The notes beneath the pieces were generated by a model that saw nothing but the letters and a program-made list of their open reading frames with translations, was not told the origin of the DNA and made no database searches. A stretch of DNA of 14,560 nt from a virus (lineage: Duplodnaviria; Heunggongvirae; Uroviricota; Caudoviricetes). This document shows positions 25 to 14,560 of the stretch, piece by piece. Positions within the stretch are counted from its first letter, which is position 1. Each line of letters opens with the position of its first letter. The translations under genes and the position numbers were made by a program. The stretch is from the IMG/VR virus record IMGVR_UViG_2681813225_000010, positions 1 to 14,560 of that record. One strand, written 5' to 3'.

Positions 25-3852
<3,828 letters not shown>

Positions 3853-4042
3853 GCTTACCTTCCCTGAACGAGCTAACATAAATGCGCCCTTTCTAGCACA
3901 GCGAAAAAATGTAAATCCTGATAGCAATATGATTGAAAATTAATAACTTTTCGTTAGGCAGTTTTGGGTGTGAGTTGCAAGAGGGGAGACTACTGAATAA
4001 CTCAAGTTTTATAATCGAGGGGAAAATGGTGATGGCGTTCAT

Positions 4043-4075
4043 AGCAAAACGCCCTCAACCATAAAGGTCGAGGGC
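4043..4075 (-). terminator. Rho-independent terminator downstream of tRNA-Asn
   Basis: On the minus strand a 7-bp GC-rich stem (CGCCCTC/GAGGGCG, 4050-4056 and 4069-4075) with a 12-nt loop is followed by TTTTGCT (complement of 4043-4049). Confidence 0.5.
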
Positions 4076-4165
4076 GCTTAAGATGTTAAAAACCCGCTAT
4101 CCGTTAAAAAACAATGTTCAACTAAGGTCAGTGACATTGCGCTAAAAAAGCGAATTTTTAGAATT

Positions 4166-4241
4166 TGGCTCCTCTGACTGGACTCGAACCAGTGACATAC
4201 GGATTAACAGTCCGCCGTTCTACCGACTGAACTACAGAGGA
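4166..4241 (-). tRNA. asnT: tRNA-Asn (anticodon GUU)
   Basis: The reverse complement reads UCCUCUGUAGUUCAGUCGGUAGAACGGCGGACUGUUAAUCCGUAUGUCACUGGUUCGAGUCCAGUCAGAGGAGCCA, a 76-nt cloverleaf with GUU anticodon and CCA end. The paralog name is from context (next to mtfA and yeeJ), since E. coli tRNA-Asn copies are identical. Confidence 0.93.
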
Positions 4242-4259
4242 ATCGTGTGAACGGGGCGC

Positions 4260-4288
4260 ATATTACTTAGCGGTACCTTGTCTGTCAA
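4260..4288 (-). promoter_or_regulatory. Putative sigma70 promoter of the tRNA-Asn gene
   Basis: Minus strand shows -35 TTGACA (complement of 4283-4288), a 17-bp spacer, -10 TAATAT (complement of 4260-4265), then a GC-rich discriminator (GCGCCCCG) about 11 nt before the mature tRNA 5' end, typical of stringently controlled tRNA promoters. Confidence 0.5.
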
Positions 4289-4341
4289 CACTAAATTTCA
4301 TAAGTCATTTCAATTGGTTAATTAATCTGCAAAGTTGTTAA

Positions 4342-5139
4342 TTAATGAACATTCGTCGCCGAAAACGAGTCTGTATCATTAGTGCGATGCAGTCTCTGCA
4401 AAGGATCTTGTTGATAAAATTGGCAGAAACGTTGCCACAATGAAGGGAAACGAGGAGCAAAAAGTTCTGGGGCGCTAAAGAAATATTCAGAAAGTACGGC
4501 AAAACATTCAGCAGGATCACTGGCAGCATAAGCATCAATGCTCGCCGCATTCTCGCCAACCAATTCGATTTCTTCCTGAATGTTGTTCATTGCAGCATGA
4601 AGATCGTGTTCCCAGCCAGCAACCTCACGCAACGGAATAAAGGGAACTCCGCTGGCGCGATCGCCGTTACGGGTGTCCAGCTTATGAGCGACTTCATGAA
4701 TAATCAGGTTAAAACCAGAAGCATCAAAAGAATCTTGTATATCCAACCAGTTCAAAACGATAGGCCCTTGCTGCCAGCTCTGACCTGACTGAACAATACG
4801 TTGGTTATGCACCAGACCGATATCGTCTTCCCATTCATCATCGACCACAAATGGCGCAGGATAAATTAAGACTTCATGAAAACCATCCAGCCATTCCAGT
4901 CCTAACTCCAGAACGGGTAGGCAAAATAGAAGTGCTATCCGGCAGCTTCTTAATGAATCCAGTTCAAAGCCCTGTAAAGGAACAAGCCGCTTTTGCTGTA
5001 AAAAACGTTCGGCAAGAGTGACTAATTTGCTTTGTTCCTGTTCCGTCAGACCCGTTAAAAGGGGGATCGATAGTGCTTCCTGCCAGGGAAGGGCAGTTTG
5101 ATGTGCTGATTCTTGTACTTTCCAGGGCCACTTAATCAT
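4342..5139 (-). CDS. mtfA: MtfA (Mlc titration factor A), zinc-dependent peptidase family, 265 aa
   Basis: ORF track 4342..5178(-). Start trimmed to the ATG giving [11 protein letters not shown] (complement 5137-5139). Contains the HEVAH zinc-binding motif ([10 protein letters not shown]). Sits between tRNA-Asn and serU as in E. coli. Confidence 0.9.
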
Positions 5140-5188
5140 CGTTTTGCTCGCAAACTCGTCACTTGAACAAAATTGCACGGACAGGGAC

Positions 5189-5197
5189 TGTTAAAAT
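5189..5197 (+). promoter_or_regulatory. Putative extended -10 element (TGtTAAAAT) of a serU promoter
   Basis: TGTTAAAAT at 5189-5197 lies about 35 nt upstream of the mature tRNA-Ser 5' end. No convincing -35 found. Confidence 0.3.
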
Positions 5198-5232
5198 GCC
5201 AAATTTCCTGGCATCATGGCAACCATCTGAAC

Positions 5233-5322
5233 GGAGAGATGCCGGAGCGGCTGAACGGACCGGTCTCGAAAACCGGAGTGGGGGCAACTCCACCGGGGGT
5301 TCAAATCCCCCTCTCTCCGCCA
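5233..5322 (+). tRNA. serU: tRNA-Ser (anticodon CGA), 90 nt including long variable arm and CCA
   Basis: GGAGAGAUGCCGGAGCGGCUGAACGGACCGGUCUCGAAAACCGG... with anticodon loop CUCGAAA (anticodon CGA), long variable arm, T-arm GGGGGUUCAAAUCCCCC, and CCA at 5320-5322. Prophage-type genes begin immediately 3'. Confidence 0.93.
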
Positions 5323-5367
5323 AAATTCAATCACTTATACATCATTAAGTCAGTGACAAAAATCACA

Positions 5368-5404
5368 CTTGGAATTACTTGGAATATTTTCTTGGAATAT
5401 TTTC
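5368..5404. repeat. Three direct CTTGGAAT repeats, the last two inside an exact 13-bp tandem repeat (TTGGAATATTTTC x2); candidate integrase arm-type binding sites in attL
   Basis: CTTGGAAT at 5368-5375, 5378-5385 and 5391-5398. TTGGAATATTTTC at 5379-5391 and 5392-5404. The first copy sits on the last integrase-fragment codons and the other two lie downstream of its stop, between that fragment and the tRNA 3' end. Confidence 0.3.
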
Positions 5405-5845
5405 AGGTAACGGGACATCAAGTGTCGGTGAAACTTTAACCTTCCTGTCATAGATTAGCACTTGCCCCTCGGTTTTGTGACCAGAGAAAAGTTGCTTATC
5501 CCGACTGCTTCCTTCATAGTCTGAAATTCCTTTCGCCTTCAGATCATGAAAGGTGAAGTCGGTTAAAATACCTGAAATTTTGCCTGCGCGATTTCTTGCT
5601 TCTACCCACATTTCGTTAAAGCCTTTGTACATATATCGGTTGCCGTATTGATTACTGATTACATAGGCGGATGTTGGTAACTGTTTTGCTTTTTCGATCG
5701 CCGCCTGTAATCGTGGACTCCATGCTTTTATCTGTTTTTTTCCTGTTTTCCCTTGCTGGATAAAGATTCCGTCGTTTCCAATCTGCTCCCATTTCAGCGA
5801 TAACACATCGGAAACCCTCGCTGCACACAGATAGGCAATTTCCAT
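5375..5845 (-). pseudogene. Tyrosine recombinase (phage integrase) C-terminal catalytic-domain fragment only (156 codons); N-terminal half absent
   Basis: The translation carries the C-terminal catalytic signature of lambda-family integrases (FTFHDLKAKG..., LFSGHKTEGQVLIYDRK with the presumed catalytic Tyr). It reads toward the tRNA 3' end. No upstream minus-strand ORF of 60 aa or more continues it (5846-6078), and full-length enzymes are roughly 330-400 aa. Confidence 0.75.
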
Positions 5846-6078
5846 TGCGATAAAAACAGGAAGAGGTGCAACGCTTAATACTGGTGTACGTCAGTTGCCT
5901 GCTGAGAGATGTCCTGCGATTGAACGAGCAACAAAAGGTGGTGTCCTGTGTGAAGAACTTCGTCCTGATGTTGATTGGACATACTTACGACGCTCGTCAT
6001 GTTATTCGCAGAATATGTCGATGAAGCAACCAAATGACGAAAACGATCATACCCGAAGCATCAAGAGGCAAATGATTC

Positions 6079-6504
6079 ATGAAAATCAAGCATGAACACA
6101 TCCGCATGGCGATGAATGCCTGGGCGCGTCCTGATGGCGAAAAAGTTCCAGCAGCTGGAATAACCCAGGCTTATTTTGAGTTGGGGATGACGTTTCCTGA
6201 ACTGTATGACGACAGCCATCCGGAAGCCCTGGCTCGCAATACCCAGAAAATTTTCCGCTGGGTAGAGAAAGACACCCCTGATGCAGTTGAAAAAATTCAG
6301 GCGTTGTTACCAGCGATCGAAAAGGCAATGCCACCTTTGCTGGTGGCCAGAATGCGCAGCCACAGTTCAGCTTATTTTCGGGAGCTGGTGGAGACGCGGG
6401 AGCGACTGGTGAGAGACGCTGATGATTTTGTCGCAGTGGCAATCGCCGGTTTCAATCAGATGAACCGTGGTGGCCCGGCAGGAAATGCTGTGGCAGTACA
6501 TTGA
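6079..6504 (+). CDS. YdaT-family prophage protein (141 aa)
   Basis: ORF track. N-terminus MKIKHEHI... is as I recall for YdaT-like proteins of Rac-type prophages. It sits immediately upstream of the O-like and DnaC-like genes (ydaT-ydaU-ydaV order). AAGAGG SD-like motif 11 nt upstream. Confidence 0.65.
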   Translation: MKIKHEHIRMAMNAWARPDGEKVPAAGITQAYFELGMTFPELYDDSHPEALARNTQKIFRWVEKDTPDAVEKIQALLPAIEKAMPPLLVARMRSHSSAYFRELVETRERLVRDADDFVAVAIAGFNQMNRGGPAGNAVAVH

Positions 6505-6575
6505 CTGACAATAGCCGTATCGAATCGCTTCCGGCAACTCGTGAGTAAAAAGATTCGGTATCAGAAGAGGTGAGT

Positions 6576-7658
6576 ATGGCTAACGCCTGGCTCAGATTAT
6601 GGCATGACATGCCAAATGACCCTAAGTGGCGAACAATTGCCAGGGTGTCAGGGCAGCCAATTGCAACAGTGATGGCAGTGTATATCCACCTCCTGGTGAG
6701 CGCGTCACGAAATGTCACGCGAGGTCACATTGATGTCACGACAGAAGATTTGGCAAGTGCGCTCGACGTGACAGAAGAGGTAATTGATTCAATTTTGCAG
6801 ACGATGCAGGGGCGGGTACTTGATGGTGATTTAATCACTGGATGGGAAAAACGCCAGGTGCTTAAAGAGGACAACGGCAATATTTCGCAAACCGCAAAAT
6901 CTCCTGCAGAGCGCAAGAGGGCGCAGCGAGAGAGGGAAAGAAAGCGGGAACAAAATGGCGATTGTCACGGCGCGTCACGAAATGTCACGCACATGTCACG
7001 ACGAGTCACGACAGATAAAGATACAGATAAAGATACAGATAAAGATACAGATCAAGAAGATCAAAACACTATGGTCCATGGCGTAAAAAACGCCACGAAC
7101 CAGGCAGGGGATGTTCAGACCGTCAATCCTGGTCAGCCAGCAGGCACGACACCGGAAGCCGATTCAGCGTATGCGCTGAAAGCCGATTCGGGCGCTGTGC
7201 AGCAGGTGATGACCGCAAGGCCGGAGCAATCACACCAACTGCAGCAGCCTGAAGCCGATTCCGCCATTCAGCGGGAAGCCGATCGGGTAGTCCCGGAAAA
7301 CACCGGGCAGCCTGTGGGACGAGTGGATTATCCGGATGTGTTCGAACAGGTCTGGCGGGAATACCCGTTGCGTGCTGGGGCAAACCCGAAGAAATCCGCT
7401 TTCAGTGCCTGGAAGGCCAGATTACGCGAGGGGGTGCCACCAGAGGCCATACTGGATGGTGTGAGGCGTTACGCAAGATACCTGGCGGCTACCGGGAAAA
7501 CGGGAACGGAATTTGTTCAGCGAGCGACGACGTTTTTTGGGCCGGACCGGAATTTTGAAAACCCCTGGTTGCTCCCGGTAAGCGGCACGAACAACCAGCG
7601 TTGTGTGAATCATATTTCTGAACCGGATACCGAAATTCCGCCGGGATTCAGGGGGTGA
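6576..7658 (+). CDS. Phage replication initiation protein (lambda O-like / YdaU-like) containing the replication origin
   Basis: ORF track 6570..7658. I favour the ATG at 6576 (MANAWLRLWHD...), which has AGAAGAGG upstream. The gene contains two iteron arrays and a tandem repeat (see repeat features), like lambda ori inside O. It directly precedes a DnaC-like loader gene. Confidence 0.8.
   Translation: MANAWLRLWHDMPNDPKWRTIARVSGQPIATVMAVYIHLLVSASRNVTRGHIDVTTEDLASALDVTEEVIDSILQTMQGRVLDGDLITGWEKRQVLKEDNGNISQTAKSPAERKRAQRERERKREQNGDCHGASRNVTHMSRRVTTDKDTDKDTDKDTDQEDQNTMVHGVKNATNQAGDVQTVNPGQPAGTTPEADSAYALKADSGAVQQVMTARPEQSHQLQQPEADSAIQREADRVVPENTGQPVGRVDYPDVFEQVWREYPLRAGANPKKSAFSAWKARLREGVPPEAILDGVRRYARYLAATGKTGTEFVQRATTFFGPDRNFENPWLLPVSGTNNQRCVNHISEPDTEIPPGFRG
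6701..6745. repeat. Iteron array 1: four GTCAC(G) repeats phased at 10-11 bp
   Basis: GTCAC at 6704, 6714, 6724 and 6735. The 20-mer CGCGTCACGAAATGTCACGC (6701-6720) recurs exactly at 6971-6990. Confidence 0.6.
6961..7052. repeat. Iteron array 2 (five GTCAC repeats) followed by an A+T-rich 12-bp tandem repeat (ACAGATAAAGAT x3.5); candidate ori core
   Basis: GTCAC at 6964, 6974, 6984, 6995 and 7005 (spacing 10, 10, 11, 10). Then ACAGATAAAGAT at 7011-7022, 7023-7034 and 7035-7046, plus a partial copy to 7052. In the protein this region reads DKDTDKDTDKDTD. Confidence 0.6.
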
Positions 7659-7664
7659 TGTGGC

Positions 7665-8411
7665 ATGAAAAACATTGCGGCAGCCGGGGTTCTTGAACGT
7701 ATTCGCAGACTTGCACCACAGGCGTCGGTTCCACCGTACCGGACGGTGGAGGAGTGGCGGGAATGGCAACTTGTTGAAGGACGAAAACGCAGCGAGGAGA
7801 TTAACCGCCAGAATCACCAGTTGCGGGTGGAAAAAATCCTGAATCGTTCGGGCATCCAGCCTCTGCACAGCAAATGCTCGTTTGCGAATTATCAGGTGCA
7901 GAACGACGGGCAAAAATACGCGCTGAGCCAGGCCAAATCCATAGCTGACGAACTGATGACCGGGTGCACGAATTTTGTGTTCAGCGGTAAAACCGGCACC
8001 GGGAAAAATCACCTTGCAGCGGCGATGGGTAACCGGCTGATGGCGAAGGGGCGCAGCGTGATTATCGTCACCGTGTCTGATGTCATGAGCGTGTTGCATG
8101 ACAGCTACGACAACGGCAAATCCGGGGAAAAATTTTTACAGGAGCTTTGCAGTGTTGATTTGCTGGTCCTGGATGAAATAGGCGTTCAGCGGGAGACGAA
8201 AAACGAGCAGGTGGTATTACACCAGATAATTGATCGCCGGACAGCATCACTGTGCAGTGTCGGGATGTTAACAAACCTGAATCATGCCGCAATGAGCACG
8301 CTTCTTGGTGAGAGGATTATGGACCGCATGACCATGAACGGTGGTCGGTGGGTGACGTTTAACTGGGATAGCTGGCGTCCAAATGTCAGCAATCAGAGGG
8401 TTGTGAAGTAA
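7665..8411 (+). CDS. DnaC-like replicative helicase loader (AAA+ ATPase, IstB/DnaC family; YdaV-like)
   Basis: Walker A FSGKTGTGKNHLAAAMG and Walker B LLVLDEIG. The ATG lies 6 nt after the O-like stop, with AGGGGGTGA upstream. Confidence 0.85.
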   Translation: MKNIAAAGVLERIRRLAPQASVPPYRTVEEWREWQLVEGRKRSEEINRQNHQLRVEKILNRSGIQPLHSKCSFANYQVQNDGQKYALSQAKSIADELMTGCTNFVFSGKTGTGKNHLAAAMGNRLMAKGRSVIIVTVSDVMSVLHDSYDNGKSGEKFLQELCSVDLLVLDEIGVQRETKNEQVVLHQIIDRRTASLCSVGMLTNLNHAAMSTLLGERIMDRMTMNGGRWVTFNWDSWRPNVSNQRVVK

Positions 8412-8432
8412 TTTTTGTTGGAGGACGTTTTA

Positions 8433-9149
8433 ATGGAAACTGTATTTGACGCACTGAAAGCACTGAAAAAAGCCTCTTCACAGGTAGTGGCATCGCGCCT
8501 TGGAATCAGCCGCGAAGATGCTGTCAACGAACTGTGGAAACTGAAGCGCCGTGGTGAAGCGGATAACAAGGGTTCGATGTGGTGGCTGATTCAGGCTGGT
8601 GAAAGTGAACCAGTGTCACCGGTACCGAAAGTGACAGCGCAAATGCTGACTGAGGCGATTGAACATCATGGCCCACAAACGGCGGATGAGCTGGCACTGA
8701 TGTTCGGGATTACCTCCCGCCGGGCGAATTCATCACTGGCCATGGCAATCAGCAAAGGGCGTCTGATTCGCGTGAATCAGGGCGGTAAATTTCGGTACTG
8801 CATACCGGGCGCTGATTTACCGGCTGAGCCGAAAGCCGCATCCATAGCGGAAACGGATGGTAAAGCCTTTCCTCAGCCAGCAGGTGTTGCGTTACCAGTC
8901 GGGGAAGCGGAAACACAGGAAGAAATAAAAACGGAAAGTGTGGCGGTCACAGTGCAGTCACAGCCGTCGTTCACCAGAAAGCATCCGGATGGTCTGATTT
9001 TACCATCGCTGCATGTGGCTAACCGCGAGCTGCGCCGGGCAAAAGGTCAGGTTCAGAAGTGGGAGCGAGTCTGCGCCGCGCTGCGGGAGCTGAACAAGTG
9101 CCGGGATATTCTCCGGGATATTACCGCCACCAGAGAACAGCAGCGGTGA
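8433..9149 (+). CDS. Prophage protein with two N-terminal winged-helix-like segments and a C-terminal coiled-coil-like tail; function unknown
   Basis: ORF track 8415..9149 begins at an alternative start codon. I prefer the ATG at 8433 (METVFDALK...), with GGAGGA 8 nt upstream. It follows the DnaC-like gene, as ydaW-type genes do. Confidence 0.65.
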
Positions 9150-9181
9150 GTGGGTGGAAGACGTGGTGCCGGGCGGAAATC

Positions 9182-9463
9182 ATGATACTCCGGCAGTGTG
9201 CGGGAACGATGAAGGTAAAAAGCGTTGGCGCACTTATCGGACGAACTGAAGCGGCAGTGAGAACGAAGGCACGGGAGCTGGGCATCAGCATGATGTTACG
9301 TGGTGATTTTCACCCGTCGGCAAAATATTCTCAGCGTGATATTGAGCTGGCGCGGCAACTGCATCAGAGAGGCATGCAAAGAAGGGAAATTGCCAGAAAA
9401 TTAGGCATGCCGCTGCGCATAGTGAATAACTACGTTTATTTCGACAGGAGGGTGTCTGCGTGA
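9182..9463 (+). CDS. Small basic protein with HTH-like segments; putative DNA-binding regulator
   Basis: In-frame ATG at 9182 (MILRQCAG...), with an alternative ATG at 9209 (MKVKS...). The C-terminal QRREIARKLGMPLRIVNNYV looks like a helix-turn-helix. ORF 9059..9463 in the track is an extension overlapping the upstream gene. Confidence 0.5.
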   Translation: MILRQCAGTMKVKSVGALIGRTEAAVRTKARELGISMMLRGDFHPSAKYSQRDIELARQLHQRGMQRREIARKLGMPLRIVNNYVYFDRRVSA

Positions 9464-9687
9464 AAATCCTGTATCAGGATTACGGCCCGGTGGGGCAGGT
9501 GGTTATCAGCAGTACTGTAATGGAGTTTCGGAAGCATAACCGTGTGGTGGATGCTGTGCTGTTAACCTGTCCGGGGATATCGGCGAGTCGTGCAGGTGTG
9601 TTTATTATGAAGACGAAATTATATGGCAGTAAGGCGTGGATAAAGAAGGCGTATCGTGTAGCGTTGCAGGAGGTTAACAGTGAGTGA
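9460..9687 (+). CDS. Hypothetical small basic phage protein (75 aa)
   Basis: GTG start overlaps the upstream stop (GTGA, 9460-9463). AGGAGGG lies 9 nt upstream. No recognisable motif. Confidence 0.45.
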   Translation: MKILYQDYGPVGQVVISSTVMEFRKHNRVVDAVLLTCPGISASRAGVFIMKTKLYGSKAWIKKAYRVALQEVNSE

Positions 9688-9991
9688 AATTAAAGAAATG
9701 CCGGTAGTTCGTGACGGATATGGCTACTGGACACATCCTGAATATGAAAAATTCTGTGATGGTCGGGAATATATTTCAACGGAAGAGTTTAACGCCTGGA
9801 TGGAGGAAAATAATCTTCAATACGTCCTCTGCTTCAGAGATGAAGGATGTGCTGACCTTGATGCGTGTGATGCTGATATTTCTGCATGGGAACCGGAACG
9901 ACCAGAGGGCGATGGCTGGTTTATTGGTTCCATTCATGATACGGAAGATGGCCCGGTTTGTGTCTGGTTGCGAAATAAGGCTGAAGCATAA
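9680..9991 (+). CDS. Hypothetical strongly acidic small protein (103 aa); possible DNA-mimic-type anti-restriction/anti-defence candidate
   Basis: GTG start at 9680 with AGGAGG 6 nt upstream; overlaps the previous gene by 8 nt. By my hand count about 25 of 103 residues are Asp/Glu and about 8 are Lys/Arg. Confidence 0.5.
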   Translation: MSEIKEMPVVRDGYGYWTHPEYEKFCDGREYISTEEFNAWMEENNLQYVLCFRDEGCADLDACDADISAWEPERPEGDGWFIGSIHDTEDGPVCVWLRNKAEA

Positions 9992-10337
9992 AGGCGATAA
10001 ACCAACTAACAACTAAATACTGAAGATTTAAATCAGAAACGATTTTTATTAAATCCTTAACCGGAGGGATTCCTGCACCCTCAGAACATCAGGAGGCCGC
10101 CCGAAAGGGCGGTAAGAAATGAAACATTATTTAGAAAAAATTACCCACGAAAGAGCAGAACAACAGAGTTTCTGTTTTTCATTCTGTTTATAGTGTTGAT
10201 GATACCGATATCCCCGCTATTACTGGTCTGGATAATTGGAAGGACATTTGAACCAGTTATTGAGCTATATACCGATGTGACATGGGAATCATTCAGCGCA
10301 CTGCACAATAAAATTAATCCGTATAAGGAAAACTGAT

Positions 10338-10895
10338 ATGAGCACTATTACCAGAGAACGCGCGGAGATTAAATCATACATCACAGGCTTCCTGAGCGAC
10401 TCGGCGCACGATAACAAGTCTTCAGACAGCCTGCTGGCTAATGTGTTTCGTATCGCGCTGGCATCACTGGAAGCAGAGCCGATAGCAATGGTAGTGCCTG
10501 ATGAAATGGATTTGCTTACCTGCCATCTCGACGGTGTAACTAAAACATATGCTGATGGCTGGAACGCCTGCCGCGTCGCCATGCTTCAGGCCGGAAACTT
10601 TCGGGAAAATAAGAATTCGTCAACCAACAATTTTCGGGAAATCTCGGAAACGTCAACCAGATCTCCGATAACTCTGGATGGCTGGATAAGCTGTACTGAG
10701 CGAATGCCTGAAAAGAGCCAGAACGTGCTTATTTCGATGAATATCGATAGCGAGGCTGGGCCATTAATATATTCCGCACGCTATCTCGGAGGCACGTTCC
10801 GGCGCGGAGGTATAGCAGTTAGTCCGGGTAATGATCTTAGGCAAGCAACCCACTGGATGTCGCTACCAGAACCGCCGCAGGAGGTGAATCAATGA
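10338..10895 (+). CDS. Phage protein with an N-terminal domain of unknown function and a C-terminal DUF551-like domain
   Basis: ORF track. The C-terminus (DGWISCTERMPE...THWMSLPEPP) matches the DUF551 signature as I recall it. No search was run. Confidence 0.65.
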   Translation: MSTITRERAEIKSYITGFLSDSAHDNKSSDSLLANVFRIALASLEAEPIAMVVPDEMDLLTCHLDGVTKTYADGWNACRVAMLQAGNFRENKNSSTNNFREISETSTRSPITLDGWISCTERMPEKSQNVLISMNIDSEAGPLIYSARYLGGTFRRGGIAVSPGNDLRQATHWMSLPEPPQEVNQ

Positions 10896-10975
10896 CCTGG
10901 CCTGAAGCATTCACAACGGTAGGAATTGCGATGGCGGTGGCGCTGGTGGTGTATTCGATTTGCCGCTGGGGATAA
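10892..10975 (+). CDS. 27-codon ORF for a hydrophobic (single predicted TM) peptide, translationally coupled to the upstream gene
   Basis: The ATG at 10892 overlaps the upstream stop (ATGA). A strong SD (AGGAGGTGA, 10880-10888) lies 3-4 nt upstream. Product MTWPEAFTTVGIAMAVALVVYSICRWG. Below the 60-aa cutoff of the ORF track. Confidence 0.4.
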   Translation: MTWPEAFTTVGIAMAVALVVYSICRWG

Positions 10976-10982
10976 AAACGGT

Positions 10983-11010
10983 TTGCGGGAAAAGGATAGT
11001 TAAGTAGAAT
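10983..11010 (+). promoter_or_regulatory. Putative promoter of the hok/mok mRNA
   Basis: -35 TTGCGG (10983-10988), 16-bp spacer, -10 TAGAAT (11005-11010). The predicted start near 11015-11017 coincides with the 5' element that pairs with the transcript 3' end. Confidence 0.4.
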
Positions 11011-11062
11011 TGCAGCGGGTGCTTGAGGCTATCTGCCTCGGGCATGAACACCAACGGCAGAT

Positions 11063-11137
11063 AGAGAAAAGCCCCAGTTAACATTACGCGTCCTGCAAGA
11101 CGCTTAACATTAATCTGAGGCTCAATCCATGCTGAAC
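11063..11137 (-). ncRNA. sok: Putative Sok-like antisense RNA overlapping the mok translation initiation region; ends approximate
   Basis: Minus-strand promoter-like elements: -35 TTGCCT (complement of 11167-11172), 17-bp spacer, -10 TAACCT (complement of 11144-11149). The predicted transcript would be antisense to the mok SD and start codon. A U-run (complement of 11061-11066) could mark the 3' end, but I found no clean terminator hairpin. Confidence 0.3.
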
Positions 11138-11341
11138 ACATGTAGGTTAGCCTCTTACGTGCCGAAAGGCAAGGAGAAGCAGGCTATGAAGCAGCAAAAG
11201 GCGATGTTAATCGCCCTGATCGTCATCTGTTTAACCGTCATAGTGACGGCACTGGTAACGAGGAAAGACCTCTGCGAGGTGCGAATCCGAACCGGTCAGA
11301 CGGAGGTCGCTGTCTTCGTAGACTACGAATCTGAGAAGTAA
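11129..11341 (+). CDS. mok: Mok (modulation of killing) reading frame, an in-frame N-terminal extension of hok
   Basis: ATG at 11129 with GAGG 8 nt upstream. The N-terminus MLNTCR... resembles chromosomal mokC as I recall it; the frame continues through hok. Confidence 0.55.
   Translation: MLNTCRLASYVPKGKEKQAMKQQKAMLIALIVICLTVIVTALVTRKDLCEVRIRTGQTEVAVFVDYESEK
11186..11341 (+). CDS. hok: Hok/Gef-family type I toxin (51 aa membrane peptide)
   Basis: MKQQKAMLIALIVICLTVIVTALVTRKDLCEVRIRTGQTEVAVFVDYESEK has a TM segment followed by the conserved TRK(D/S)LCE...REVAAF-like C-terminal region of Hok/Gef toxins. AAGGAG lies 9 nt upstream of the ATG. Confidence 0.85.
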   Translation: MKQQKAMLIALIVICLTVIVTALVTRKDLCEVRIRTGQTEVAVFVDYESEK

Positions 11342-11348
11342 GAGACCA

Positions 11349-11407
11349 GGCGGGGGAGTAATCTCCCGCCACCTCTGATGTGTCAGGCATCCTCAACGCA
11401 CCCGCGC
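11349..11407 (+). promoter_or_regulatory. hok mRNA 3' structure: GC-rich terminal stem-loop plus an fbi-like element complementary to the mRNA 5' end
   Basis: Stem-loop GGCGGGGG-AGUAAU-CUCCCGCC at 11349-11370. The 3' segment CCTCAACGCACCCGC (11391-11405) is complementary to GCGGGTGCTTGAGG (11015-11028), giving 8 bp + 6 bp with one bulge. Confidence 0.55.
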
Positions 11408-11460
11408 TTTACCATACTGAAAATGCTGTTTGAATGTTCATCTCTGAAAGAGGACTATGA

Positions 11461-11805
11461 ATGAAAAAGGTATTGATTGCAGCACTTATTTCCGGTGTGT
11501 CTTTTGGCGCTTTTGCACAGCAGGGTGGTTTCCAGGGGCCAGAAGCAGAGCGTTCAACAGTAGCGCAGGCAAAAGAACTGAAGGATGATGCATGGGTTAT
11601 CCTTGAAGGGAGCATCGTTAAAAAAGTGGGTGATGAACGTTATGAGTTTCGTGACAATAGCGGGACAATTGTCACGGATATTGATGACAGCGTATGGGCC
11701 GGGCAGAATGTTTCTCCGAAAGACAAAGTAAGAATTGAGGGTGAAATTGATAAAGACCTGAGCAGTGTTGAAGTTGATGTAAAGGCACTGAAATTATTAA
11801 AGTAA
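11461..11805 (+). CDS. YgiW/YdeI-family (BOF, bacterial OB-fold, DUF388) periplasmic protein with signal peptide
   Basis: Signal peptide MKKVLIAALISGVSFGAFAQQ and clear similarity to YgiW-type proteins (QGGFQGP..., TIVTDIDD..., VEVDVK). AAAGAGGA lies 6 nt upstream. Followed by its own terminator. Confidence 0.85.
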   Translation: MKKVLIAALISGVSFGAFAQQGGFQGPEAERSTVAQAKELKDDAWVILEGSIVKKVGDERYEFRDNSGTIVTDIDDSVWAGQNVSPKDKVRIEGEIDKDLSSVEVDVKALKLLK

Positions 11806-11821
11806 CCGCCCCTGCTTGTTA

Positions 11822-11848
11822 AGCCCGTCTTACTGACGGGTTTTCTGT
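11822..11848 (+). terminator. Rho-independent terminator after the BOF gene
   Basis: Stem CCCGTC/GACGGG (11824-11829 and 11835-11840) with a 5-nt loop, followed by TTTTCTGTTT. Confidence 0.6.
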
Positions 11849-11926
11849 TTGTACATTCCGGCGTATTGCCTTACAATTCGCGCAGTCAGCCTGAACAACT
11901 GACACCTGCTGTCACCGGAGAATCCG

Positions 11927-12199
11927 ATGACACAACACATAAAATCCCACAATTCTGAAGCCGACCCGGAAATTAAGCAGGGGAGGCGTTTTCGTGCGCC
12001 TCAGTATGGCTGGTTTCACTATCTGTTCTGTACGATCGATGAGGCAGATATGCTTCAAGAGGCGTATCTGCGTCGCGGTGTCCGTGTGGAGCTGAGTCTG
12101 AACGCTGATCGTCTGACCTGGACCGTTTCTGTATATCTTCCTGTTCGTGCACATTTGCCACGGACACATGCCTGCTACCGTCAGCGCGTCTGGAGGTAA
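11927..12199 (+). CDS. Hypothetical phage protein (90 aa), first gene of a coupled pair
   Basis: ATG at 11927 with GGAG 6 nt upstream. Its stop TAA (12197-12199) sits just upstream of the GTG start of the next gene. Confidence 0.5.
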   Translation: MTQHIKSHNSEADPEIKQGRRFRAPQYGWFHYLFCTIDEADMLQEAYLRRGVRVELSLNADRLTWTVSVYLPVRAHLPRTHACYRQRVWR

Positions 12200-12200
12200 T

Positions 12201-13250
12201 GTGCGGGTATTACTTCGACCTGTTCTGGTTCCGGAACTCGGGCTGGTGGTCCTTAAGCCCGGTCGTGAATCATTGCCAGTTTTTCATCGCGGCAGGGTGC
12301 TGGTGGAGCCGGAACCGAAAAACATGCGGGCGCTGCCATCTGGAGCGGTTCCTACTGTTCGCCAGCCGCTGGCGGAAGATAAATCACTGCTGCCATTTTT
12401 CAGCGATGAGCGGGTGATTCGTGCAGCTGGCGGCGCTGGTGCACTGTCTGACTGGTTATTACGTCACGTGAAATCCTGCCAGTGGCCACACGGCGATTAT
12501 CATCACAGCGAAACCGTTATTCACAGTTACGGTGCTGGCGCAATGGTGTTGTGCTGGCACTGCGACAACCAGCTGCGCGACCAGACCTCCGAATCACTTG
12601 AGCAACTTACTCAACAAAATCTGACAGCCTGGATGATTGACGTCATACGCCATGTAATGAATGGCACGCAGGAGCGGGAATTATCGCTGGCTGAATTATC
12701 CTGGTGGGCAGTCTGCAATCAGGTGGTGGACGCATTACCTGAGGCAGTATCGCGTCGCTCTCTGGGATTACCGGCGGAAAAAATCCGCTCCGTATACCGT
12801 GAAAGCGACATCATACCGGGAGAACAGACCGCCACCAGCATACTGAAGCAGCGCACAAAAAATATTGCGCTACCGCCTCACACCCACCAGCAACAGAACC
12901 CACCACAGGAAAAGACGGTGGTCAGCATTGCCGTTGATCCGGAGTCTCCGGAATCCTTCATGAAACGACCTAAACGTCGCCGCTGGGTAAATGAGAAATA
13001 CACACGCTGGGTAAAGACACAGCCGTGTGCGTGTTGTGGTAAGCCAGCGGACGATCCTCATCATCTGATTGGTCATGGTCAGGGCGGAATGGGAACAAAA
13101 TCCCACGATATTTTCACGCTACCGCTGTGTCGGGAGCATCACAACGAGCTTCATGCGGATCCGCTGGCGTTCGAAGAAAAGCATGGTTCCCAGGTTGATT
13201 TAATTTTTCGTTTTCTTGATCACGCCTTTGCAACCGGCGTGCTCGGGTAA
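12201..13250 (+). CDS. DUF968-like phage protein with a C-terminal zinc-finger/HNH-like motif (nin-region protein)
   Basis: ORF track gives 12147..13250. I favour the GTG at 12201, 4 nt after a GGAGG motif and just past the upstream stop. C-terminus: CACCGKPADDPHHLIGHG...LCREHHNELH (Cys pairs and HH pairs as in HNH-type folds). Immediately precedes rusA. Confidence 0.65.
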   Translation: MRVLLRPVLVPELGLVVLKPGRESLPVFHRGRVLVEPEPKNMRALPSGAVPTVRQPLAEDKSLLPFFSDERVIRAAGGAGALSDWLLRHVKSCQWPHGDYHHSETVIHSYGAGAMVLCWHCDNQLRDQTSESLEQLTQQNLTAWMIDVIRHVMNGTQERELSLAELSWWAVCNQVVDALPEAVSRRSLGLPAEKIRSVYRESDIIPGEQTATSILKQRTKNIALPPHTHQQQNPPQEKTVVSIAVDPESPESFMKRPKRRRWVNEKYTRWVKTQPCACCGKPADDPHHLIGHGQGGMGTKSHDIFTLPLCREHHNELHADPLAFEEKHGSQVDLIFRFLDHAFATGVLG

Positions 13251-13262
13251 AAGAGGTTACTG

Positions 13263-13622
13263 ATGCGTATAGAGTTTGTTTTGCCTTACCCGCCGACGGT
13301 GAACACCTACTGGCGACGTCGTGGCAGCACATATTTTGTATCAAAAGCCGGTGAGCGTTATCGCCGGGATGTGGCACTTATTGTTCGCCAGCAGCGGCTG
13401 AAATTAAACCTGTCCGGAAGGCTGGCGATAAAGATTATTGCAGAGCCACCGGATAAGCGCCGTCGTGACCTGGACAATATCCTGAAAGCACCACTGGATG
13501 CGCTGACGCATGCCGGACTTCTCATAGACGACGAGCAGTTTGATGAAATCAATATTGTGCGCGGCCAGCTCGTTTCTGGTGGGCGGCTGGGCGTGAAGAT
13601 TTACAAAATTGAAAGTGAGTGA
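13263..13622 (+). CDS. rusA: RusA Holliday-junction resolvase (crossover junction endodeoxyribonuclease)
   Basis: Similarity to RusA as I recall it: PDRRRRDLDNLQKA in the reference versus PDKRRRDLDNILKA here, plus a GGRL motif near the C-terminus. AAAGAGG lies 5 nt upstream of the ATG. Confidence 0.9.
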   Translation: MRIEFVLPYPPTVNTYWRRRGSTYFVSKAGERYRRDVALIVRQQRLKLNLSGRLAIKIIAEPPDKRRRDLDNILKAPLDALTHAGLLIDDEQFDEINIVRGQLVSGGRLGVKIYKIESE

Positions 13623-13630
13623 GCATAAAT

Positions 13631-14185
13631 ATGATATACTCGGAAATTACAGGCAAAAGCGGTGAGCATTTACGCCTGAAAACGCTGGAAAGTGTCTGGA
13701 TCCAGGGGAAACTGCGTATGTGGGGGCGTTGGTCGTATATTGGCGACGGTAAGACGGGAAATATGTTCAACCAATTACTGACCTCTAAAAAGCTGACAAA
13801 AACGGCAATTAACGAGGCGCTCCGGAGGATGAAAAAAGCGGGTCTGGACAAACCTGAACTTGAGGCTTTTTTGTGGGATATGATCAACGGCAATCAAAAA
13901 AGCTGGCTGGCACATTGTACCGATTCAGAGGCGTTAATAATCGACAGGGTTATTGGTGAAGTACTGGCAGGTTATCCCGGGCTGCTCAATGTTCTGAGTC
14001 AGCGTTATGTGGGGCGGGGGATGACTAAGCGCAAAATGGCTGAACTGCTGAATGATGCACATCCGGAATGGAGTTTAAGAACCTGTGAAAGACGCATTGA
14101 GCATTGGCTAAAGGTGGCAGAATTTATTTTGTACAAACCAATGGTTATGGCTTTTGGTATAGATAAAAAAGTTATTGCTTTTTGA
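13631..14185 (+). CDS. Putative late-gene antiterminator Q-like protein (phage 82 / QuuD-type family)
   Basis: Position after rusA and immediately before a promoter-like region and a strong terminator (the PR'-tR' arrangement). Weak motif resemblance to QuuD-type proteins from memory (W-G-x-W, LLTSK, YVGRGMT). The start is ambiguous: the GTG at 13619 overlaps the rusA stop, the ATG at 13631 is in frame. Confidence 0.55.
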   Translation: MIYSEITGKSGEHLRLKTLESVWIQGKLRMWGRWSYIGDGKTGNMFNQLLTSKKLTKTAINEALRRMKKAGLDKPELEAFLWDMINGNQKSWLAHCTDSEALIIDRVIGEVLAGYPGLLNVLSQRYVGRGMTKRKMAELLNDAHPEWSLRTCERRIEHWLKVAEFILYKPMVMAFGIDKKVIAF

Positions 14186-14263
14186 CGTAAAAACTGCTTC
14201 AATTCCGGTACGCTTCGCAAAGCTGTACCGCGAGGCGAATAGCAGACATGGACATTTGAAAGA

Positions 14264-14288
14264 GCCCGCTTTTTGCGGGTTTTTTTAT
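14264..14288 (+). terminator. Strong Rho-independent terminator (tR'-like) downstream of the Q-like gene
   Basis: Stem GCCCGC/GCGGGT (14264-14269 and 14275-14280) with a TTTTT loop, followed by a 6-7 T run (14280-14286). Confidence 0.65.
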
Positions 14289-14409
14289 GACTGAAAAACG
14301 GCACGGGGCGTTAAATGCGCTGGTGGTTGCGAATACCGGTCTTTCTGCTTGCTGGCTTTTTGGACAAGAGTTATTGGTGTGTCACGTTAACCGGAAAGGG
14401 TAAAAAGAC

Positions 14410-14560
14410 ATGCTGAAACAGCAGGATATGACAGAAACCGCCAGAGTTGTGTTTGATGAATTAAGTGCCACCGAACCGGCGACAGTCGGGGAGATTGCAC
14501 AGAATACGTACCTTTCACGCGAACGCTGCCAGCTAATACTGACCCAGCTTGTTATGGCGG
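14410..14560 (+). CDS. 5' part of an ORF running off the window end; product has a winged-helix-like segment
   Basis: ATG at 14410 with a GGAAAGGG purine tract about 9 nt upstream. Translation MLKQQDMTETARVVFDELSATEPATVGEIAQNTYLSRERCQLILTQLVMA... is open to the window edge. Confidence 0.3.
   Translation, partial: MLKQQDMTETARVVFDELSATEPATVGEIAQNTYLSRERCQLILTQLVMA

Follow-up and report, generated by a model that had tools for sequence, protein, structure and literature searches.

What is the phage DNA that follows the serU tRNA gene in this stretch of Escherichia coli sequence, how did it get there, and is it still a working prophage? The stretch, called the window here (14,560 nucleotides (nt), IMG/VR record IMGVR_UViG_2681813225_000010), is E. 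coli chromosome; strain 2014C-3011 (NZ_CP027591.1) matches it along its full length at 99.79% identity, the two differing by 19 substitutions and one 12-nt repeat unit. Its left third is host DNA (yeeJ', asnT, mtfA and serU). A first-pass annotation had taken the remainder for a degraded, Rac-like lambdoid prophage at the serU 3' end. Our analysis supports its view of a cryptic remnant, half of int and the whole repressor switch being deleted, and we conclude that positions 5261-14560 are very probably the left arm of a defective lambdoid prophage of the Sp14/CP-933U family at serU. Gene families were assigned with Pfam, PHROGs, Rfam and NF-numbered profiles, and tRNAs with ARAGORN and Rfam. 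The lambdoid elements previously listed in canonical order were each recovered at or near their positions (Pfam, Rfam, PHROGs). After serU the order is int', 'ydaS, ydaT, an O-like gene, a DnaC-type loader, small early genes, hok/sok, a YgiW-type gene, DUF968/HNH, RusA, a Q-like gene and a terminator; the int fragment lies on the minus strand and every gene from 'ydaS onward on the plus strand. Since annotated prophage DNA in RefSeq genomes matches the whole stretch at 99.6-99.8% identity, the listed phage elements are not chance resemblances. The argument turns on the following features of the junction and the immunity region.

5233-5322, plus strand: serU, tRNA-Ser(CGA), intact (ARAGORN and Rfam)
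5261-5338, plus strand: attL core region, 62 nt common to attR and attB up to CCA, plus about 16 nt of partial similarity
5368-5398, plus strand: three direct copies of CTTGGAAT in the P' arm, candidate arm-type Int sites
5375-5881, minus strand: integrase pseudogene (PF00589, E=2e-11), reading toward the tRNA gene, with no start codon
5883/5884: deletion joint, int codon 174 fused to ydaS codon 38, at most 1 nt of microhomology
5883-6095, plus strand: 'ydaS, 213 nt, the C-terminal 70 of 107 codons of a Cro-like YdaS (PF15943 positions 32-64 of 65)
6072-6089, plus strand: inverted repeat ATGATTCATGAAAATCAA, one mismatch from the YdaT operator consensus
6079-6504, plus strand: ydaT, CII-equivalent regulator (PF06254)

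The attachment site was analysed by alignment of attL (window), attB (K-12) and attR (two genomes) and by a pattern scan of nine loci. The serU sequence common to phage and host runs from CGGTCTCG in the anticodon stem to CCA, 62 nt in all (5261-5322), and the direct repeat of 15-25 nt expected by the first-pass annotation was too short, the att repeat being 62 nt or more. Each of the five attL copies examined has G at 5280, C at 5291 and then phage flank, whereas an A/T pair at the same positions, followed by the yodB-side flank, is found in the K-12 attB and in four of four attR copies; the latter adjoin yodB in 2014C-3011, OkiPb01679, O111 E2863 and O157 Sakai. These variants place the strand exchange within 5261-5279, in the anticodon stem-loop. 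Judged by them, serU is a hybrid gene, with a bacterial 5' part and, from about 5261-5279 onward, a 3' part supplied by the phage attP. Phage-derived sequence already begins inside the tRNA gene and not directly after CCA (5323), where the boundary had been drawn. Because positions 5280 and 5291 are predicted to face each other in the variable-arm stem, the change from A-T to G-C is compensatory, and as the G-C pair is present in every occupied attL, lysogens should express a slightly different tRNA-Ser(CGA).

A direct repeat of the tRNA 3' end, an empty site elsewhere and an intact tRNA gene at attL were all seen, with attR taken from related genomes only. The attR that was to be sought downstream is absent from the window, in which the 3'-terminal 25 nt of serU, at up to 3 mismatches, match serU alone; it was located next to yodB in related genomes. 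The Sakai attR matches window 5262-5338 at 91%, and the 2014C-3011 copy carries one extra C in the C-run. Four copies of CTTGGAAT occur in the window against 0.63 expected, three of them clustered at 5368-5398, and this 8-mer is found twice, once per orientation, in the P arm beside attR of O111 E2863 (stretch L009, about 16628 and 16690). These copies look like arm-type Int binding sites, for which we propose them as candidates.

The distribution of the empty and the occupied site bears on whether the element was inserted at all. In K-12, the reference for the empty site, window 28-5338 has a colinear counterpart of 99.2% identity, after which serU leads straight into the yodB intergenic region with no phage DNA. 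A probe of 130 nt of K-12 (serU and 40 nt downstream, coverage at least 80%) detected the uninterrupted serU-yodB junction in 4,131 complete-genome records, and a 188-nt attL probe (coverage at least 80%) detected attL of this element in 1,155 of 5,426 complete genomes. With most genomes carrying the empty site and only this part carrying attL, the element is inserted and polymorphic, not ancestral. Thus the insertion proposed by the first-pass annotation holds on both counts: an attR repeat of the serU 3' end exists, and the gene order is not found at this locus in all relatives. In addition, serU is listed as an insertion site of lambdoid and Shiga toxin (Stx) phages in a review (PMC8065619). 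Ancestral chromosome, or a non-phage genomic island that never inserted at serU, would account for stable presence in one clade of strains and for nothing more; it is refuted by the comparison of attB, attL and attR, with its duplicated att bearing phage-type and host-type variants, and it conflicts with the empty site in K-12 and most E. coli and with strong PHROG and Pfam phage families throughout. We consider it next to impossible.

Inside the inserted DNA, the integrase reads toward the tRNA gene, as had been described for this fragment (5375-5881, minus strand, PF00589), and its stop codon lies 53 nt from the serU end. The fragment corresponds to residues 174-341 of the 341-amino-acid integrase of record ON470583, with 166 of 168 residues identical (99%), and is 99.4% identical to Int of Sakai Sp14 over 168 residues. 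It keeps the C-terminal catalytic part (168 of 341 codons, 49%); the N-terminal arm- and core-binding half is gone. Identity to 300+ genomes ends at window 5883, and from 5884 on the window matches, at 100% identity, the 3' two-thirds of a ydaS-type gene of 107 codons, which adjoins racR in other prophages. The remaining 'ydaS begins at codon 38, past the predicted helix-turn-helix (HTH), which is deleted. Since the two sides have at most 1 nt in common at 5883/5884, the joint points to illegitimate recombination. It is common to only 5 complete genomes (of 5,426), in which int and ydaS are annotated as pseudogenes.

Between int and ydaT there is no xis, no repressor and no early promoter, and the Repressor/Cro switch is absent from the window. 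Relative to the O111 prophages, 4,974 nt are missing from the window, which has 189 nt of a different ydaS allele in their place, with breakpoints at 5883 and 6073 (Blast). Besides the int 5' half, the deleted segment holds, depending on which undeleted relative is consulted, a xis-like gene, an exonuclease VIII gene, ydfD, dicB, small genes, the divergent early promoters and the repressor; the exonuclease VIII gene in the missing O111 segment is a remnant. Undeleted relatives retain the Repressor/Cro switch and its loss is therefore secondary. The earlier statement that the element lacks most of int and the whole cI/cro region was right about the repressor, overstated the loss of int (49% is kept) and overlooked the cro-like ydaS stub at 5883-6095. 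At the end of this stub lies ATGATTCATGAAAATCAA, which overlaps the ydaT start. The published YdaT operator consensus is TTGATTN6AATCAA, and the place of the repeat at the ydaS/ydaT boundary is that of operator OM in CP-933P (PMC9986795). YdaT is 82% identical to its Sp14 homolog and 31% to YdaT of Rac.

We propose that a temperate phage entered by recombination of its attP with the serU anticodon stem-loop, carried out by a tyrosine integrase. The attP would have carried the serU 3' part from the anticodon stem to CCA, so that the tRNA gene was rebuilt at attL with the phage 3' part, and the displaced bacterial 3' part would have been left at attR, adjoining yodB. Later, a single illegitimate deletion of about 5 kb would have fused int codon 174 to ydaS codon 38, taking with it the Int N-terminal half, any early-left genes present there, the divergent early promoters, the RacR/CI-type repressor and the HTH of the Cro-like protein. 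We derive the integration mechanism from the att anatomy, read by analogy with what is established for tyrosine recombinases that target tRNA genes; the order of events, integration and then decay, is one we infer. Excision of the element on its own is impossible because it has no complete Int and no Xis. Without a functional Int, Xis, repressor, Cro and early promoters, it is neither inducible nor excisable on its own. The early-right operon (ydaT-O-loader-nin-Q), having no promoter of its own, is probably silent, and the hok/sok locus and the YgiW-type gene, which have their own signals, are plausibly still-active units.

An intact, inducible prophage that merely looks incomplete at the window boundary would fit the full-length open reading frames (ORFs) of the O-like gene, which contains an ori-like array, and of the loader, RusA and Q-like genes, as well as the complete late regions that close relatives carry at the same site. 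Against it, the first 173 codons of Int are gone, as is the YdaS HTH, and xis, repressor and early promoters are missing between int and ydaT. Moreover, the five genomes that share the joint have int and ydaS as pseudogenes, and the two of them examined in full have no head and tail genes. An intact prophage is thus contradicted by the sequence and very unlikely.

Several points nevertheless weigh against a defective Sp14/CP-933U-type prophage with the history given above. Relatives in which the missing segment survives have another ydaS allele or another repressor; O111 ydaS is a different allele, so that the joint does not align on the ydaS side, and the matching allele stands beside racR in other prophages. 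No direct ancestor of the deletion turned up, and the figure of about 5 kb for its length is an estimate. The window ends at 14560, and the right arm and attR of the source genome are deduced from genomes that are 99.8% identical but not the same. The silence of the early-right operon, too, is something we infer from sequence, and a consensus promoter scan returned fewer promoter-like sites than shuffled sequences, which carries little weight either way.

Instead of being silent, the early-right operon might be expressed at a constitutive low level (ydaT, O, loader, Q), by read-through from serU or from a YdaT-controlled promoter at 6072-6089, and could then drive in-situ replication or the trans-activation of late genes in other lambdoid prophages. 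The idea of read-through is based on the strong expression of serU on the same strand and on the lack of a convincing terminator in 5323-6079. We regard such expression as improbable; if it occurred, in-situ replication could make use of the intact ori-like array.

The right arm, which lies beyond the window, was followed in 2014C-3011 and OkiPb01679. In both, the lysis genes and a PerC-family gene are the last of the lambdoid element, and terminase, head and tail genes are absent; a tRNA cluster continues the element beyond the window, as seen in 2014C-3011. An insertion sequence (IS) of the IS3 family abuts attR 2 nt inside the core in 2014C-3011. OkiPb01679 has no IS, and its PerC flank is joined straight to CGAAAACC of the core. 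Both genomes have lost the P arm and part of the exchange zone. When the interval from PerC to attR is compared (L004 28150-29480 in 2014C-3011, L011 16990-17060 in OkiPb01679), OkiPb01679 lacks the IS and a few flanking bases, with 2-nt microhomology at the joint, which suggests IS excision with a small deletion. Separately, a Mu-like prophage of about 39 kb sits inside a TerB-like gene of the remnant in both strains, a prophage within a prophage (L001 30797-49449 and L004 1-22058 in 2014C-3011; L011 23141-49901 in OkiPb01679). In O111 E2863, a left arm of 99.6% identity is followed by lysis, terminase, head, tail, lom, tail fibre and nleC genes before attR.

These right arms bear on a further reading, in which a phage satellite, an island of the phage-inducible chromosomal island (PICI) type, and not a decayed full phage occupies serU. 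An integrase beside a tRNA gene, a replication module and the want of structural genes in the nearest genomes are what such an island would present. The nin region, Q antiterminator, tR'-like terminator, tRNA cluster and lysis genes are typical of lambdoid phages, however; DNA of 99.6% identity runs on into full terminase, head and tail regions in O111, and the absence of structural genes is explained by a deletion that ends at the IS3-family element inside attR. A satellite is therefore highly improbable, and a decayed lambdoid prophage remains our reading of the locus.

What this prophage has kept on the rightward side is given below.

6570-7658, plus strand: O-like replication initiator or replisome organizer (phrog_3729 "replication initiation protein", E=1e-255)
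7665-8411, plus strand: DnaC-type helicase loader, YdaV-like (PF01695 IstB_IS21/DnaC; NF009043, 508 bits)
8433-10895, plus strand: small early genes, namely DUF1627 (YdaW-like), an HTH protein, two unknowns, DUF4014 and DUF551 (Pfam, PHROGs)
11017-11341, plus strand: hok/sok-type type I toxin-antitoxin, leader with sok region at 11017-11191 and hok at 11186-11341
11461-11843, plus strand: YgiW/YdeI-family OB-fold stress protein gene (PF04076, NF033674) with a terminator-like hairpin (11821-11843)
11927-13622, plus strand: nin-type region with a small gene, DUF968/HNH (YdfU-like) and RusA (Pfam, PHROGs)
12201-13250, plus strand: DUF968 gene with HNH-type signature (PF06147; phrog_96 "HNH endonuclease")
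13263-13622, plus strand: RusA resolvase (Pfam)
13631-14185, plus strand: Q-like late antiterminator (DUF1133; PF06576, E=1e-102; PF06530 Phage_antitermQ; phrog_753)
about 14257-14287, plus strand: tR'-like intrinsic terminator, AAAGAGCCCGC-UUUUU-GCGGGUUUUUUU
14410-14560, plus strand: first part of a small phage gene (phrog_331; TrmB-family in RefSeq) that runs past the window end

The replication module appears undamaged; it includes an ori-like array within the O-like gene that consists of five GTCACG motifs at 6962-7010 (10-11-nt spacing) and then four copies of ACAGATAAAGAT at 7011-7057. The ACAGATAAAGAT units encode a DKDT repeat, and the window has one 12-nt unit more (7011-7022) than 2014C-3011. 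Most of the substitutions relative to that strain are found in the same part of the element: 18 of the 19 fall in 6090-8356 (the ydaT, O-like and DnaC-like genes), the 6.1 kb ahead of 6090 hold a single one (at 3405), and the 6.2 kb beyond 8356 are free of them. The cluster looks like a patch of recombination or gene conversion whose donor was another prophage.

The hok/sok locus (11017-11341), missed in the first-pass annotation, matches RF01794 over the full model at 113.5 bits (gathering score 59), the match ending 6 nt into hok (11186-11191), and the hok ORF matches PF01848 (E=4e-23) and is 92% identical to HokD of Qin. Ten early and cargo proteins scanned with PADLOC matched no anti-phage defence family. 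The YgiW-type gene, placed between hok and the nin genes and followed by what appears to be its own terminator, has the layout typical of a moron-type cargo gene. The remnant may have been kept by selection, with hok/sok penalising its loss or the YgiW-type gene conferring a benefit, and the deletion may itself have been selected, the loss of the repressor being tolerable only together with that of the ydaS-ydaT promoter. Both cargo units are intact, the latter with its own terminator; the deletion removes repressor, promoters and YdaS HTH together, and the layout persists in strains from the USA and Japan. A joint present in only 5 of 5,426 complete genomes, however, fits a young clonal event equally well, and we hold selection to be possible but doubtful.

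Within the nin-type region, the small gene matches Qin weakly (35% protein identity), at a place immediately past the annotated rem gene. Behind the Q-like gene, the 115-nt stretch 14186-14300 folds into two hairpins (-39.2 kcal/mol, z=-4.26). The second, at about 14257-14287, pairs GCCCGC with GCGGGU and is followed by seven U, a textbook intrinsic terminator that begins 72 nt past the Q-like stop codon; it was shown by folding, and a consensus terminator scan missed it. A search by eye for pR' after Q found none that was convincing, TTGACG at 14182-14187 having no acceptable -10 element at a spacing of 16-18 nt, and no convincing qut site was identified either.

The host flank, on the other side of serU, contains three further features.

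28-3927, minus strand: yeeJ 5' part, inverse-autotransporter adhesin gene
4166-4241: asnT, host tRNA gene
4342-5178: mtfA, host gene

The window opens with AGTCTCCAGGATTCCCGGGGCGGTTCA (1-27). These letters are a terminal inverted repeat belonging to an IS3-family element (IS629/IS1203-like), by which yeeJ is interrupted. As homology to K-12 begins only at position 28 (break 27/28), yeeJ is a pseudogene in the window; it is annotated as a pseudogene in 2014C-3011 as well.

The element is an ordinary object of an already known kind, with near-identical copies annotated in RefSeq. Lambdoid prophages at serU are already documented (Sp14 in O157 Sakai), and the locus has little import beyond its correct annotation. 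The gain is a precise anatomy: a junction inside the tRNA gene, one joint behind the loss of both half of int and the immunity region, and an element locked in place. In addition, the joint at 5883/5884 (5 of 5,426 complete genomes) can serve as a clade marker for strain typing, and research on RacR/YdaS/YdaT toxicity gains a natural case in which repressor, promoters and YdaS HTH were lost jointly.

Among named prophages, the nearest relative is Sp14 of O157:H7 Sakai, which has the same site and integrase. The link between Sp14 and serU was taken from the Sakai RefSeq annotation ("prophage Sp14, lambda-like phage"), in which it lies, like our element, between serU and yodB with int adjoining serU; the attL sequence and the G/C tRNA variant are the same. 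From the chromosomal flank through serU and attL to the int fragment (window 3494-5883), identity to Sakai is 99.5%. The counterpart of Sp14 in EDL933 we take to be CP-933U. Sp14 has the order of the element (int, exonuclease VIII, dicB, repressor, cro, ydaT-like, O, loader, hok, DUF968, RusA, Q, ileZ-argN-argO, lysis, head, tail), but in contrast to the window it keeps the full int, a xis-like gene, the exonuclease, cI and cro. Outside int its DNA is only 82-92% identical to the window, in patches, and its Q gene does not match the Q-like gene of the window. The Sp14 loader is of the lambda-P type, unlike the DnaC-type loader here, and a circular form of Sp14 was detected at a low level after mitomycin C (PMC2669165).

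Rac of K-12 has the RacR/YdaS/YdaT-type immunity layout and a DnaC-type loader in common with the element, 'ydaS being 80% identical to YdaS, the loader 80% to YdaV and the DUF1627 protein 57% to YdaW. Unlike the element, Rac sits at ttcA with an unrelated intR, keeps racR and lacks this nin/Q region. The description as Rac-like is apt for 'ydaS, the loader and DUF1627 and fails for int, the site, the O-like and the Q-like gene, while the nin region resembles that of Qin. We also considered the element as a copy of Rac and rejected this, given the different site and int, the absence of racR, a YdaT identity of 31% and the lack of any match between YdaU and the O-like gene. Qin of K-12 resembles the element in hokD (92%) and YdfU (DUF968, 84%), and the early-left genes of the dicB/ydfD type in undeleted relatives are Qin-like. 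It differs in attachment site and int and in its dicA/dicC immunity, and its Q-type gene ydfT does not match the DUF1133 gene of the window.

The serU-linked O111 prophages, such as that of E2863, are 99.6% identical in DNA over 5100-5883 and 6073-14560. Together with records ON470583 and ON470580 they retain the 4,974 nt that are absent from the window and carry the different ydaS allele; ON470583 has the full 341-amino-acid Int, 99% identical to the fragment, and O111 E2863 retains a complete late region and nleC. Set beside these systems, the element belongs by site and integrase to the serU-integrating Sp14/CP-933U group and is a mosaic elsewhere.

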